From: a virus
DNA: 4,631 nt
Direction: 5' to 3' (one strand)
Virus genome (UHGV): UHGV-0038887
In this document: one piece after another, positions 1,051 to 4,631 of the stretch
How positions within the stretch are numbered: position 1 is the first letter of the stretch
Layout: every line of letters begins with the position of its first letter
The notes under the pieces: model-generated
Databases searched by the model: none
The model's input: only the letters and a program-made list of their open reading frames with translations
What the model was told of the DNA's origin: nothing
Translations under genes and position numbers: made by a program

Positions 1051-2763
1051 TTAAAAATGGTCAATAAGACCTGGTACAGAGTATACAGGCATGGGCCGCA
1101 CACACTTCAAGTCAAAGAACGCATCCATAATGAACTGGGGTTCGTCCTGTACAGCAAGAACGCGTTTCATCGGTGGATTCTCTTCAATGAATTCCTGATT
1201 CAGTGCAGGAAGAGAGTCGAACCGCTGGGCTAAATGCCACACATCGAGAGATTGCGGGTCTGTGGAACGTAATTTACCAGTAATCTGAGATGGTCGGTAG
1301 CGGTACTCTGCATAACGTTCCTGATAACCAAAAACTTCCTCATCCTTCTCGTTACCTTGTGCATAAATCTCCTTGTTAAAAACAGCCTGTTCGCCCAGAT
1401 GGGCCAGTGCAGGCCAGTAAAAATCAAAACGAGTCAGACGGGAAAACATACGCGGAATACCTTGCTGATAGGTCAAGTCGGCACGAACGCTGACAAGACC
1501 AATCACAAAACAATGCTCAACGAAGGAATGAGAGAAACCACGGTTTACACCTCCTGCAACGCCATAAGCGGCTAAGTTACCCTGTGGGGTGGAGTCGGTA
1601 GTAGCGGAGTTCTGGAGAACGGGGTTCACATTAATATCAAACGTACCAGAACCAAGATACTCGGGACGCTGTACACGGGCATCCGGCGAAATAACGCCAA
1701 AATGGGAGCGGATAATCTCAATATAACGAGTACCACCGCGAGCATCACGCTCAAGCAGCCGCTGAAGCTGGAACGCCTGACGAAGCGAATTGATTGTCAG
1801 ATTATCAACAACCTCACCGCCAGACTGCTTCAACTTAACGGGCGGATTTCTTTCATCAAATCCGGCAACCGCATAAGACAACGCACCTTCATCACCAATA
1901 GTAACAGGTGGAAACTTCCAATTACCTACACGATCCGTAGATAAATACATTTGAGAAGCCCCAATGTCATCATATGCAGAATTGGGCTGCGTACCCATAA
2001 CCAATTTATAGGGGTCGGAAAGACCAACAGAACCATTACCAGAAAAACCATAAGTCTTAAAGCCTAAACCACCTGGATAGCTGGGATATTCCAGACTGTA
2101 AGACGGTGGAACGCCAAGAGCAATCTCAACGCCTTCACCTTTCTGAGGCCATGGAAGGGCACTGGTGAAATAATCATGACGTTTTGCACGCTTACGCAAC
2201 GGAAAATTTGCAAGACCTGTTTCCGTCTCATCACCAAGCGGAAGCGGGGCGGAATTAATCAGGTTTTCATCACGATACCATTCGTTATAAATCAGGTTGT
2301 ACGCGCGAAACGGCAGAGCGCTCACACTGATACCTTCAATACCTGTGGGAACGCCAAAATAATCGGCAAGGGAACCTACAGGGAAACCGCCAGAAGGGGC
2401 TTTAATCTGCGGGATAAGATAATCCGTCGAATCACCAGGATTCTTCTGCTCACCGTTGAACTGTTGCCAGTGGTCCCAGACAAGACGATAGGGCACGGAA
2501 AAATACTGGATATCCAGGCGAAGGTTATCCATAAAAGGCACCACTGGCGTGGAGAGACGCGCCAGAATGGACGTCTTCAGATGGAACGTATCACCTGGTA
2601 AAGCCTCATCCAGAAACACGGGAATTAAATAACCTGCATCAAAAGAAGTTTTATAACCGGAACTGCGGTTAAAAACCGAACGCTGAATGTTGGCACTCGG
2701 GATAACTGAAAAATTATGCTGACTTTTTGAATTACTGGGCACTTTGCGACCAAATTTACTCAT
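1051..2763 (-). CDS. VP1: Major capsid protein VP1 (gokushovirus F-like)
   Basis: 570-aa ORF whose length and N-terminal region (…MDNLRLDIQYFSVPYRLVWDHWQQF…) match my recollection of gokushovirus VP1. Strong Shine-Dalgarno (GAGGGGGG) 3 nt before the ATG. Confidence 0.95.
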   Translation of the reverse strand: MSKFGRKVPSNSKSQHNFSVIPSANIQRSVFNRSSGYKTSFDAGYLIPVFLDEALPGDTFHLKTSILARLSTPVVPFMDNLRLDIQYFSVPYRLVWDHWQQFNGEQKNPGDSTDYLIPQIKAPSGGFPVGSLADYFGVPTGIEGISVSALPFRAYNLIYNEWYRDENLINSAPLPLGDETETGLANFPLRKRAKRHDYFTSALPWPQKGEGVEIALGVPPSYSLEYPSYPGGLGFKTYGFSGNGSVGLSDPYKLVMGTQPNSAYDDIGASQMYLSTDRVGNWKFPPVTIGDEGALSYAVAGFDERNPPVKLKQSGGEVVDNLTINSLRQAFQLQRLLERDARGGTRYIEIIRSHFGVISPDARVQRPEYLGSGTFDINVNPVLQNSATTDSTPQGNLAAYGVAGGVNRGFSHSFVEHCFVIGLVSVRADLTYQQGIPRMFSRLTRFDFYWPALAHLGEQAVFNKEIYAQGNEKDEEVFGYQERYAEYRYRPSQITGKLRSTDPQSLDVWHLAQRFDSLPALNQEFIEENPPMKRVLAVQDEPQFIMDAFFDLKCVRPMPVYSVPGLIDHF

Positions 2764-2813
2764 AAACCCCCCTCGGGAATCTGACTAAATTATAAACAAA
2801 CCACTGTATAAAC

Positions 2814-2900
2814 TGACACCTTTTTACAGGCTTCGTGGGAGCCGCCTGTAAGTTTCGGTGTCACCTGGCACAGTTACATCAAGTAGGACACTGTGCCAGG
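2814..2900. repeat. Tandem stem-loop module in the VP3-VP1 intergenic region
   Basis: Perfect 11-bp inverted repeat CCTGGCACAGT (2864-2874) / ACTGTGCCAGG (2890-2900) around a 15-nt loop. Immediately adjacent is an interrupted hairpin: TGACACC (2814-2820) pairs with GGTGTCA (2857-2863), and TTACAGG (2824-2830) pairs with CCTGTAA (2845-2851), around a 14-nt loop. No U-run follows on the coding strand. Confidence 0.6.
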
Positions 2901-2908
2901 CTGCAGGG

Positions 2909-3421
2909 TCAGGAGCCGTCTGCAGGTTTCGCGGGTTCAACACCCGCATCTGCTGAATTATTCACATCAGCACCGGAACGCTCCCGCGGGGACGCCGGAG
3001 CAGGACTCGACTCGCGAACGCTGACGCGTTCGGTCGCCGACTCCTCTCCGCCGCTCAATAATCCAAGCTCACGCGCTTTACTCCAGTTCTGCGGGTCACT
3101 CATCCACTCAACGTACTGCTTAACGTTGTTACCAAACATCGAGCGAATCGTGGACGGCAGGCTGTTAAAGTCGTCGTTAACGTCGTCAATTAAAGCCATT
3201 GCGTCCACATAATCAGTAATCGCAGAGGCATCGTAAAATTCACCACGCTGAGCACTGGTAAACACTGTCGTATCTCCCGTTCTTATCGCACGCTCAACAA
3301 TCTTGTTAACATCGCACTCATCGCGGAAATGCTGCTGGGTCATCGTAGGCTCTGTAAACTCGATGCCGGGCGACGGCGGCGGGTTATAACGGGTATGAAA
3401 CTTAGGCTTCGATGTACGCAT
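2909..3421 (-). CDS. VP3: Putative internal scaffolding protein (VP3-like); start uncertain
   Basis: ORF between VP5 and VP1 with an acidic, Ser/Pro-rich low-complexity C-terminus. The track ORF runs to 3511 (200 aa), but that first ATG has no Shine-Dalgarno and would overlap VP5 by 110 nt. The ATG at 3421 (MRTSKPKF…, 170 aa) has GGAG about 10 nt upstream and overlaps the VP5 stop by 20 nt. Assignment is by position and composition, not a recognised motif. Confidence 0.6.
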   Translation of the reverse strand: MRTSKPKFHTRYNPPPSPGIEFTEPTMTQQHFRDECDVNKIVERAIRTGDTTVFTSAQRGEFYDASAITDYVDAMALIDDVNDDFNSLPSTIRSMFGNNVKQYVEWMSDPQNWSKARELGLLSGGEESATERVSVRESSPAPASPRERSGADVNNSADAGVEPAKPADGS

Positions 3422-3671
3422 CTTCCATTTTCTCCAGGAACGCCGGACTGGCATCACAAACATAAACGCGGTCAATATCGACCGGAACCAGCTGCTGGTC
3501 CACAAAGTCATAAGCAGTCACACGGTGCAACGAAAAATCAACACGCTGCATACGATTACAGAACGCGTGCAGATTGCCTTTCGCAATACCATCATGCTGG
3601 GCCATAAACATAAAAACATCAGCATTAATCAGCTTGTCATGAATTACATAAACTGCATCAGAGTGAGCCAT
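3402..3671 (-). CDS. VP5: VP5-like small protein (proposed role in DNA synthesis/packaging, by analogy to phiX174 C)
   Basis: 89-aa ORF immediately downstream of VP4, with its start overlapping the VP4 stop by 14 nt and AGGAAG upstream of the ATG. Size and position match gokushovirus VP5. Confidence 0.7.
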   Translation of the reverse strand: MAHSDAVYVIHDKLINADVFMFMAQHDGIAKGNLHAFCNRMQRVDFSLHRVTAYDFVDQQLVPVDIDRVYVCDASPAFLEKMEDAYIEA

Positions 3672-4521
3672 CTTCTAACTTCCTCATCATTCGCTGGAAT
3701 TTAACCAGATTAAACTTATCCATATCCTGTAAGCGCCACGGGTCCAGTATATTTGCATTCAACTGGCGACACTCTTTATTCTGCTGCAACTTTTCCAAAT
3801 CACAGCCTGATAATAACTTGTCATAATAGCGGGGCGGTTTTATCTGACGACCACCACGACCAATACACGCATCTGAATTAACTATGTCATCGTAATATTC
3901 CATAAAAAAATCATAACCAATACCGGGTCTGTTACTCATGGCAGAAAACTCGGGGATACGGTCTCCGTAATGCTCCGAAGCACGGGAACCGGTGACTTTT
4001 TTAACACAGTATCGCGCCACGTAAGCAGCCGACTCAAAACTAAAAGCAGCAACAACAGACCAGCCAAAAGTCCAACATCTCTCAAGAAGCGAAGACCTAT
4101 ATAAATTAAATCTTCCAGCCTTGTGTAATGTCTTATCCGGAAAATCATAACCAAAAATAATCGCATGATAATGCGGTCGTTCTAATTTAGAACCATATTC
4201 ACCACAACCAAAAAATCGAATTGAAATATCATCAACAGCCAAAGACTTACGCAAACGCTTCATAAAATCAGTGAAATGTTTACGTACAAGAGAACCATTT
4301 TCAGGCAAATTCTCAGGGGAATAAGTCAGAGTGATAAAACAATTGTAATCATGCATGTGGGCTTCATGAACGCAACGGGTAGCCCAGTCACGAGAATGAG
4401 CAAGACGGCAACCGATGCACTGACCGCAGGGCAACTGGATGAATTTAGCGCCACGTGACGGCGTGAAAAAAATCTTTCCCGATGGCATCTGGTACGCGTT
4501 TAAAGGACGAGTACAAGCCAT
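3658..4521 (-). CDS. VP4: Replication initiation protein VP4 (HUH rolling-circle endonuclease)
   Basis: Rolling-circle Rep motifs: motif 1 CFITLTY, motif 2 HYHAIIFG (HUH), motif 3 YVARYCVKK with YxxxY catalytic tyrosines; also an N-terminal CGQCIGC cluster. Preferred start is the ATG at 4521 (MACTRPLNAY…, 287 aa), which has GGAGGTG 6 nt upstream. The track ORF start at 4563 (301 aa) has no Shine-Dalgarno and lies inside the dif XerC arm. Confidence 0.92.
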   Translation of the reverse strand: MACTRPLNAYQMPSGKIFFTPSRGAKFIQLPCGQCIGCRLAHSRDWATRCVHEAHMHDYNCFITLTYSPENLPENGSLVRKHFTDFMKRLRKSLAVDDISIRFFGCGEYGSKLERPHYHAIIFGYDFPDKTLHKAGRFNLYRSSLLERCWTFGWSVVAAFSFESAAYVARYCVKKVTGSRASEHYGDRIPEFSAMSNRPGIGYDFFMEYYDDIVNSDACIGRGGRQIKPPRYYDKLLSGCDLEKLQQNKECRQLNANILDPWRLQDMDKFNLVKFQRMMRKLEDGSL

Positions 4522-4554: not shown

Positions 4555-4582
4555 AGTGCGCATAATGTATATTATGTTAAAT
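4555..4582 (+). other. dif site (XerC/XerD), right prophage junction (attR-like)
   Basis: AGTGCGCATAA-TGTATA-TTATGTTAAAT matches E. coli dif (GGTGCGCATAATGTATATTATGTTAAAT, from memory) at 27 of 28 positions. The only mismatch is position 1 of the XerC arm. Same orientation as the left site. Confidence 0.85.
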
Positions 4583-4631
4583 CATGTCTGAGTGATGCGA
4601 AGTGCTTTTCTGGTAGTCGTTATTCGTTCAG

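Follow-up and report, generated by a model that had tools for sequence, protein, structure and literature searches.

Background

In viromes from the gut, the sea and soil, gokushoviruses rank among the most abundant single-stranded DNA (ssDNA) phages. They are assumed to replicate like phiX174, and we found no paper that maps the replication origin of a gokushovirus. Here we analyze UHGV-0038887, a stretch of virus DNA of 4,631 nucleotides (nt; the whole stretch is referred to below as the window), and focus on the intergenic region between the genes for VP3, the internal scaffolding protein, and VP1, the major capsid protein. Every gene of the window is encoded on the minus strand, and in the Microviridae the coding strand is the strand that is packaged, which in this case is the minus strand of the window. 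We conclude that a hairpin in this region (hairpin I), together with the heptanucleotide TGACACC that follows it (2857-2900, minus strand), is probably the rolling-circle (+) origin, which would be nicked in the hairpin loop by the replication initiator (Rep) protein VP4.

Several described systems provide the framework for the comparison. In the origins of geminiviruses and circoviruses, with their characteristic nonanucleotide, and in those of pT181 and pMV158, the cut motif is located in the loop of a hairpin, the stem is conserved in pairing, and a Rep-binding motif is found nearby. The intergenic region of the Ff phages (M13/f1) contains the (+) origin, the (-) origin and the packaging signal side by side in contiguous hairpins, and both this region and the oriC of phage G4 are hairpin arrays that resemble the three hairpins described below (denoted 0, I and II). 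Plasmids that bear the 30-bp phiX origin yield packaged circular ssDNA upon phage infection. In phiX174, cleavage occurs between G4305 and A4306 within the 30-nt ori(+), and the hairpin of the ori(-) overlaps a terminator in the gap between genes F and G (bioRxiv 10.64898/2026.07.25.740675). The closest published parallel comes from other clades, the reekeekee- and roodoodooviruses, in which one or two intergenic hairpins next to Rep have loops that are identical even in distant genomes and compensatory stems; a role as minus-strand origin was considered for these hairpins, the function was left open, and no link to the phiX cut site was drawn (PMC9865509). Our comparison with these hairpins is by description, not by sequence.

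We found no description of the gokushovirus element analyzed here in the searchable literature (the genome papers on phiMH2K, Chp2, SpV4 and Chp1 are outside this coverage, and an earlier mention is possible), and the element is absent from the paper defining the enterogokushoviruses and from two large surveys of microvirus genomes. The new aspect is that an origin core of the phiX type is borne in a hairpin loop; the type of origin is itself known.

A hairpin with the core of the phiX174 viral-strand origin in its loop

The gap between the VP3 and VP1 genes (2764-2908, 145 nt, minus strand) includes hairpin I (2864-2900, minus strand), which consists of two 11-nt arms with 100% complementarity (5' arm CCTGGCACAGT, 2900-2890; 3' arm ACTGTGCCAGG, 2874-2864) and a 15-nt loop, GTCCTACTTGATGTA (2889-2875). 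Folded as coding-strand ssDNA, this hairpin has a free energy of -13.5 kcal/mol (z = -4.98, with 0 of 200 shuffles as stable), and in the predicted fold TAC pairs with GTA within the loop, leaving TTGAT at the apex. The tail TGACACC directly follows hairpin I (2857-2863, minus strand); this sequence is a candidate Rep-binding determinant and doubles as the 5' arm of the outer stem of hairpin II. The first-pass annotation of this DNA, made without database searches, had placed two adjacent stem-loops, including a perfect 11-bp palindrome, in the 145-nt gap, and both are indeed present at these coordinates and more stable than shuffled sequences; it overlooked a third hairpin that spans the VP3 stop codon as well as the conserved sequence of the loop.

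The loop core ACTTGAT (2878-2884, minus strand) is the same as the core of the phiX174 ori(+), which we verified in the RefSeq record as CAACTTG/ATATTAATAACACTATAGACCAC (the slash here and below marks the cut), with rep_origin annotated at 4306. Comparison of the loop sequence CTACTTGATGT with the cut core CAACTTG/ATA shows 7 of 7 identities in ACTTGAT and 9 of 11 over the first 11 positions; by this correspondence, the predicted VP4 cut would fall between G2880 and A2879. Over its full length, the coding strand of the window, CTACTTGATGTAACTGTGCCAGGTGACACC, is identical to the phiX ori(+) at 16 of 30 positions in one register, and the distance from the cut to GAC is 17 nt in both the element and phiX174. 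A 30-position weight matrix derived from alignment A2, which consists of 100 distinct copies of the element (see below), was scanned over both strands of phiX174 (10,772 positions), and the true origin, in the exact register, ranked 5th; the 12-nt core alone ranked 2nd. The weight matrix was used in place of the covariance model R1, built from the same alignment, which misses the phiX174 origin. The 30-nt target of the phiX gene A protein has three parts, namely the key with the cut site, an AT-rich spacer and a right-hand binding sequence with GACCAC at its end, and the element is of equal length. The match of the core is strong, and that of the 3' half is only suggestive, with GACACC in the element versus GACCAC in phiX174, and with a spacer that in the element is a GC-containing stem arm and in phiX174 is AT-rich.

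The element thus shares with the ori(+) of phiX174, G4 and alpha3 the viral-strand core ACTTGAT, cut after the G in these phages, as well as the 17-nt spacing, a homologous Rep and the presence of a single copy. It differs in that the phiX174 ori(+) lies inside gene A and has no inverted repeat, whereas the gokushovirus element is intergenic, at the 3' end of VP3, its spacer is the 3' arm of a co-varying stem of 8-14 bp, and its predicted cut is in a loop. In the window, the element is separated from the VP4 gene by ~750 nt.

The presumed partner of the element, VP4 (3658-4521, minus strand), matches the Pfam family REP_ORF2-G2P (E = 9.7e-21), and in a BLASTP comparison it is similar to phiX174 protein A across the HUH region (E = 3e-6). 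The HUH motif is RPHYHAIIF in VP4 and RLHFHAVHF in phiX A, and the tyrosine motif is AYVARYCVKK (Y167, Y171) in VP4 and FYVAKYVNKK (Y343, Y347) in phiX A; Chp2 and phiMH2K share the VP4-type catalytic tyrosine motif. Judging by these motifs, VP4 is an initiator of the gene A protein family, with an HUH motif and a YxxxY motif. Monophyly of the Rep proteins of the two subfamilies has been reported (PMC6668415).

Conservation of the element across gokushoviruses

When the whole window was searched against phage records, only positions 2857-2900 matched (~95% identity) in microviruses that are otherwise unalignable, and a sensitive search with the gap alone identified 92 phage records that share a stretch of ~44 nt. 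The capsid proteins of three such genomes are just 44-60% identical to the VP1 of the window, and the ~95% identity of 2857-2900 extends to genomes with a capsid identity of 44-47%. A scan of IMG/VR for ACTTGATGTAACTG retrieved 120 loci, and ~70 microvirus-sized contigs have the same frame, in which the 5' arm is followed by a loop with (Y)CTACTTGATGTA at its end, then by a 3' arm that starts with ACTG and, directly, by TGACACC. Phages of Enterobacteria and Bdellovibrio and diverse metagenomes (gut, marine, soil) share this loop and tail; in Chlamydia phages only the core is found. A record labeled 'pequenovirus', which we considered as an extension of the element beyond the gokushoviruses, was rejected in this capacity, its capsid protein being gokushovirus-like (47% identical to the VP1 of the window, with no match to phiX F). 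A search of rolling-circle plasmids for the element yielded only a gokushovirus episome and a plasmid-borne prophage. The former is the 4,549-bp circular 'plasmid' of E. coli RHB37-C16 (CP057117.1), that is, an episomal enterogokushovirus genome, and the latter is a gokushovirus located between two ISNCY transposase copies (NZ_CP053574.1, 54983-63034) in a 171-kb IncF plasmid of Citrobacter sp. TSA-1.

For an unbiased census, we assembled 80 loci solely on the basis of VP1 peptide patterns; 73 of these are near-complete genomes. Overall, the element is present in at least 66 of these 73 capsid-selected gokushovirus genomes. A strict scan found it in 51 (52 of 74 with the window included), and the covariance model R1, which detects the window copy with 66.3 bits (E = 1.9e-17, 2853-2908, minus strand), added ten more (L169, L152, L185, L155, L188, L132, L147, L178, L175 and L197) as well as an inverted copy in contig L143. 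Weaker R1 matches were obtained for L198, L174 and L194 and for the cultured phages phiMH2K (22.4 bits) and SpV4 (10.7 bits, E = 0.58); the SpV4 capsid was left out of the protein alignment, given that TGA encodes Trp in its host. A relaxed search for hairpins near the end of VP3 added L150, L195 and L200 and also found the element in Chlamydia phage Chp2, as CTAGCGTATAACAG-tctacttgat-CTGTTATACGCTAG-gtgatagc. Chp2 required this relaxed search, as it escaped the strict loop motif even with up to 3 mismatches allowed and receives only 5.9 bits from R1. A loose detector that requires a hairpin and CTTGAT reports 67 of the 73 genomes, a count that is an upper bound only, with a background of 31% in shuffled genomes and of 23 of 73 on the opposite strands.

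The most widely shared 10-mer of the census genomes, CTTGATGTAA (35 of 73), and the most widely shared 12-mer, CTTGATGTAACT (31 of 73), both belong to the element and outrank every k-mer from the capsid-coding region, although the loci had been selected by capsid motifs. Each genome contains one copy of the element. The loop sequence CTTGATGTAA also holds stop codons in two of the three frames (TGA and TAA), and in 12 genomes the VP3 open reading frame (ORF) enters the element, ending 1-51 nt inside it.

Two patterns of conservation are apparent within the element. In the 12-pair stem of alignment A2, 80.6% of the cells are paired, compared to 29-40% when the partners are slid by 1-3 columns; 195 cells show changes on both sides of a pair, compared to 80.5 +/- 9.7 in shuffles (0 of 500 reach the observed value); and compensatory changes affect all 12 pairs (for example, pair 16-44 is CG in 52 copies, AU in 32, GC in 6 and UA in 3). 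The loop core (CTACTTGATGTA) and the tail TGACACC are, by contrast, invariant or nearly so, and the tail is retained whether or not a downstream complement is present. What is retained in the stem is the pairing, whereas in the loop and the tail it is the sequence itself, implying that a protein partner recognizes it specifically. Loss of base-pairing in homologues was one of the refuting outcomes that the first-pass annotation had named in advance, and for hairpin I the pairing is retained, with strong covariation.

Two related genomes in which the element was not detected, L172 (~246-290) and L179 (~15-60), carry a dif-like sequence, ATAATGTATATTATGTTAAAT, near the end of VP3, which suggests that these are further lysogenic gokushoviruses.

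Genomic position and gene order

The element is located on the VP1-coding strand in every genome but one (contig L143, discussed below). The 52 genomes identified by the strict scan all carry it between genes, at the 3' end of VP3, at distances that range from a 51-nt overlap with the stop codon to 378 nt downstream, and the gene that comes next is VP1, the neighbor in the lineage of the window, in 20 genomes, VP8 in 19 and VP4 in 13; in phiMH2K, the element follows VP5. Two gene orders are represented, namely VP4-VP5-VP3-[element]-VP1-VP2-VP8 and VP4-VP5-VP1-VP2-VP3-[element]-VP8. The linkage of the element to VP3, in combination with a changing downstream gene, disfavors a function specific to VP1 and fits a site of cutting and rejoining, and the two gene orders around the fixed VP3-element pair imply that the breakpoint of the rearrangement coincides with the 3' side of the element. 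These observations suggest that Rep-mediated cut-and-join at the element drove genome rearrangement. In some genomes, the whole intergenic region consists of the hairpin, the tail and a ribosome-binding site; hence this is a minimal cis element.

Accessory hairpins and the rest of the gap

Hairpin II (2814-2863, minus strand) is a compound structure with an outer 7-bp stem, TGACACC/GGTGTCA (2863-2857 with 2820-2814), an inner 8-bp stem, TTACAGGC/GCCTGTAA (2851-2844 with 2831-2824), and a 12-nt loop; as coding-strand ssDNA, it has a free energy of -11.8 kcal/mol (z = -3.48, 2 of 200 shuffles as stable). Hairpin 0 (2901-2925, minus strand), which abuts hairpin I on the other side, has the stem CTGCAG/CTGCAG and a 13-nt loop that holds the VP3 stop codon, and alone it is weak (-4.8 kcal/mol, z = -1.96). 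The contiguous 117-nt block that includes all three hairpins (2812-2928) reaches -30 kcal/mol as ssDNA (z = -5.68, 0 of 200 shuffles), and the gap folded as RNA (148 nt) reaches -56.3 kcal/mol (z = -3.98).

In 21 of 109 elements (~19%), at least 6 nt complementary to the tail occur within 100 nt downstream, compared to 3.4% in shuffles. Many genomes proceed from the tail directly to a ribosome-binding site and ATG, without hairpin II; the TGACACC/GGTGTCA hairpin, limited to that ~19% of the elements, was accordingly discarded as a universal feature. Among 10 enterogokushoviruses, nearly the whole gap is invariant although the genomes are only ~87% identical, and the outer stem of hairpin II is identical. 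The inner stem shows register-shifted compensatory variants, namely TTACAGGC/GCCTGTAA versus T(T/C)CA[C]AGGC/GCCTTGA(A/G), and in hairpin 0 both sides of the stem have changed, from CTGAAG/CTTCAG in the relatives to CTGCAG/CTGCAG in the window. Of 106 elements, 70% have a stable hairpin immediately 5' of hairpin I, compared to a rate of 22% in random 30-mers. Hairpins 0 and II are accessory structures that differ between lineages. They could be a host-adapted complementary-strand origin, a second, inverted Rep site, or structures at the 3' ends of transcripts; in the last case, candidate sites for end formation between the VP4-VP5-VP3 and VP1-VP2 units. For the lineage-limited hairpin II, a priming or RNA-level role is possible. 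On the plus strand, 2782-2824 resembles part of the 3' half of the element in inverted orientation (ACTGT...CTGACACC; 14.2 bits, E = 0.02); this weak copy recurs in the E. coli relatives and corresponds to the TGACACC/GGTGTCA repeat of the outer stem of hairpin II; it could be a second Rep-binding site.

Between hairpin II and VP1 lies an unstructured leader (2764-2813, minus strand) that contains TATAAT (2794-2789), the Shine-Dalgarno sequence GAGGGGGG (2774-2767) and the VP1 start codon ATG (2763-2761) at its boundary. The perfect TATAAT, 26 nt upstream of the VP1 ATG, is found in the window only, with TAGTAT or TATTAT in nine relatives; given these variants and the lack of an acceptable -35 hexamer, we do not consider it an established VP1 promoter.

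Proposed mechanism and alternative explanations

The sequence analysis establishes the anatomy of the element, its conservation and covariation, the rules for its strand and position, its match to the phiX ori(+) and the homology of the Rep proteins; cleavage of the element, the exact cut site, cruciform extrusion and the coupling to packaging are features that we infer. Under the proposed scheme, the 11-bp inverted repeat would be extruded or melted in the supercoiled replicative form, exposing the loop CTACTTG/ATGTA in single-stranded form, and VP4, as an HUH endonuclease with a YxxxY motif, would dock on the 3' arm and TGACACC. It would then cut between G and A at minus-strand positions 2880 and 2879, staying on the 5' end, and the host polymerase would extend the 3'-OH. 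After one round, the regenerated hairpin would be cut and rejoined by the second tyrosine, releasing circular ssDNA that, by analogy with stage III of phiX174 replication, would be fed into procapsids, such that the same site would serve as the terminator and the packaging entry. With respect to the whole subfamily, we are inclined, somewhat more cautiously than for the window itself, to regard the module of hairpin I and TGACACC (~45-56 nt) as the universal viral-strand origin of the Gokushovirinae and, by the phiX analogy, as the packaging entry, homologous to the phiX174 ori(+) but presented in a loop.

The element resembles the hairpin origins of other HUH-Rep replicons (geminiviruses and circoviruses, pT181, pMV158) in the invariant loop, where the cut site is predicted to lie, the co-varying stem, the adjacent short motif and the intergenic location. 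Unlike geminiviruses and circoviruses, the gokushoviruses have CTACTTGATGTA rather than NANTATTAC in the loop and a two-tyrosine Rep of the phiX A type without a helicase domain. Neither iterons nor direct repeats were seen next to the hairpin; TGACACC occurs once, and ~19% of the genomes have a second copy in inverted orientation.

Several observations weigh against the identification of hairpin I as the (+) origin, or limit its reach. The phiX174 origin is located inside gene A and has no hairpin, so the homology rests on a core of 7-12 nt and the spacing; the match of the 3' half is modest, with the other 18 positions (13-30) of the matrix ranking 295th, and the tail 402nd, of 10,772. Approximately 4 of the 73 VP1-selected genomes have no convincing copy (L138, L146, L171 and the L172/L179 type), and the tails in the Chlamydia phages and SpV4 are different (GTGATAGC and TTGACGAC), with poor model scores; CTCACAG is another tail variant. 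The seeds of the alignment were picked by the loop motif and at least 6 contiguous stem pairs, a choice that inflates the percentage of paired cells although it cannot create variety of stem sequences. In contig L143, the element (4112-4169) likewise comes right after VP3 but is inverted relative to all genes; a 10-nt inverted repeat, TTTTGCTCTT/AAGAGCAAAA, borders the inverted segment, and the inversion could be real or an assembly artefact. Finally, complementary-strand priming or packaging would be equally conceivable as the function of a viral-strand hairpin with a conserved loop, and strand specificity does not separate these functions from that of an origin because all of them act on the coding, packaged strand.

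Every ssDNA phage needs a start site for the complementary strand, and the first-pass annotation, by comparison with phiX174 and G4, had favored such a site in this gap, with packaging as a further option. Its general frame of functional stem-loops that belong to the replication or packaging of an ssDNA phage is upheld by our analysis; its suggestion of a complementary-strand origin fits hairpin I less well, the loop of which matches the viral-strand cut site of phiX. As a minus origin, the hairpins of the incoming ssDNA would remain double-stranded under the single-stranded DNA-binding protein and attract host priming factors (the PriA primosome, DnaG or RNA polymerase), from which synthesis of the replicative form would begin. 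An intergenic array of three adjoining stable hairpins on the packaged strand is compatible with this role, albeit not specific to such origins, and the n'/PriA hairpin in the F-G gap of phiX174 and the three hairpins of the G4 oriC are likewise stable, intergenic, located by the capsid gene on the packaged strand and overlapping with transcription signals. Similar hairpins in other small microviruses have been tentatively interpreted in this manner (PMC9865509), and hairpins 0 and II recur as structures with varying sequence, as might be expected of host-adapted priming sites. However, the phiX174 and G4 sites are recognized by host factors and are specific to a phage group, and host priming signals differ between bacteria, whereas the loop and tail of hairpin I hardly vary between phages of hosts as different as Chlamydia and Bdellovibrio or between those of gut, marine and soil samples; this conservation points to the phage's own conserved Rep rather than to host priming proteins. 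The loop matches the phiX (+) cut site and not the phiX (-) origin, and many genomes have hairpin I without hairpin II. We therefore consider a minus origin an unlikely function of hairpin I; of the three hairpins, only 0 and II remain candidates for this role. It is a possibility that these two supply the complementary-strand origin and that both origins are combined in one block of ~115 nt, for which the Ff intergenic region, although from an unrelated family and with a different cut sequence, offers a possible model.

An RNA-level function, be it a leaky terminator, a stabilizer of the 3' end of the VP4-VP5-VP3 message, or a stabilizer or processing site at the 5' end of the VP1 message, appears to us improbable. 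The constant location at the end of VP3 on the mRNA-sense strand and the strong folding of the gap RNA are in line with such a function, as are T-rich runs that follow the second hairpin in several genomes (for example, GGTGTCTTTTT and GGTGTCTTGTT) and the precedent of the phiX174 terminators, which are weak hairpins overlapping other signals (bioRxiv 10.64898/2026.07.25.740675). However, a consensus scan for promoters and terminators detected none within the gap (and no rho-independent terminator in 2764-2925), in agreement with the earlier remark that the absence of a U-tract argues against a classic terminator, whereas the same scan does call a terminator at 1036-1021; terminator loops have 3-8 nt, as against 15 nt in hairpin I and 12 nt in hairpin II. 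An Rfam scan of 2600-3100 on both strands gave no match up to E = 1. Terminator or stabilizer hairpins, moreover, require no invariant 12-nt loop or 7-nt tail, the downstream gene varies, and in many genomes the next ATG is ~20 nt past the tail, so transcription must read through the element. In particular, an mRNA element serving VP1, the alternative offered by the first-pass annotation, finds no support in the gene order, with the element following VP3 in 52 of 52 genomes and preceding VP1 in 20. We regard it as very unlikely that the element is bound by a phage protein other than VP4 in a function unrelated to nicking, such as that of a packaging or condensation signal for VP8, VP5 or VP3, with a coincidental likeness to phiX. 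The conserved loop and tail do imply a conserved partner, VP5 and VP8 are conserved as well, and in phiX174 the origin and the packaging signal coincide, which makes these roles hard to separate. Yet a rank of 5th among 10,772 for a pre-specified site is improbable by chance (~5e-4), the active site of the Rep is shared with phiX A, and no other candidate origin was seen, the element being the most conserved nucleotide string in these genomes.

The prophage and its genes

Seven E. coli prophages, Escherichia phage EC6098 (genus Enterogokushovirus) and Microvirus mar4 share 87-93% identity with the window. Both ends of the window match the chromosomal dif region beside hipA in more than 4,000 E. 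coli genomes, and dif-like motifs are present at 62-90 and 4556-4583 (GGTGCGCATAATGTAAAGTTATGTCAAAA and AGTGCGCATAATGTATATTATGTTAAAT). From these dif matches and the kinship to enterogokushoviruses, the window can be identified at the sequence level as an enterogokushovirus prophage inserted at the E. coli dif site, as described for enterogokushoviruses.

In addition to VP4, the minus strand encodes VP5 (3402-3671), VP3 (2909-3421; Pfam Chlamy_scaf, E = 8e-34; stop codon at 2909-2911), VP1 (1051-2763; Pfam Phage_F, E = 1.8e-180), VP2 (230-1000) and VP8, a J-like DNA-binding protein encoded by an arginine-rich ORF of 39 aa, MARSRRRMSKRSSRRSFRKYAKSHKKNFKARSMRGGIRL (108-227), which is under the 40-aa threshold of the ORF list. 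The terminator at 1036-1021 (minus strand) is a textbook rho-independent one, GGCCTCTTCGGAGGCC followed by TTTTTTT, and lies between the VP1 stop and the VP2 start. Within the 3' end of the VP2 ORF (271-292), there is a perfect 9-bp palindrome, AAGGGGGGA-agcg-TCCCCCCTT, which the scan classes as terminator-like on the plus strand.

Implications

If hairpin I with its tail is the viral-strand origin, it would give thousands of metagenomic genomes a natural zero coordinate and a marker of the strand, it would be a nucleotide probe more conserved than the capsid gene, and phagemids or reporter replicons based on gokushoviruses might be built around it as a minimal cis element. Rep-mediated cut-and-join would then be a mechanism for the two gene orders of the subfamily, and the hairpin-free origin of phiX174 would be linked to the hairpin-loop origins of other HUH-Rep replicons. 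A close relative of the prophage, EC6098, has been brought back to life and can be grown in E. coli (PMC7062461). Thus, the element offers a testable answer, in a culturable system, to the question of where rolling-circle replication of gokushoviruses starts.

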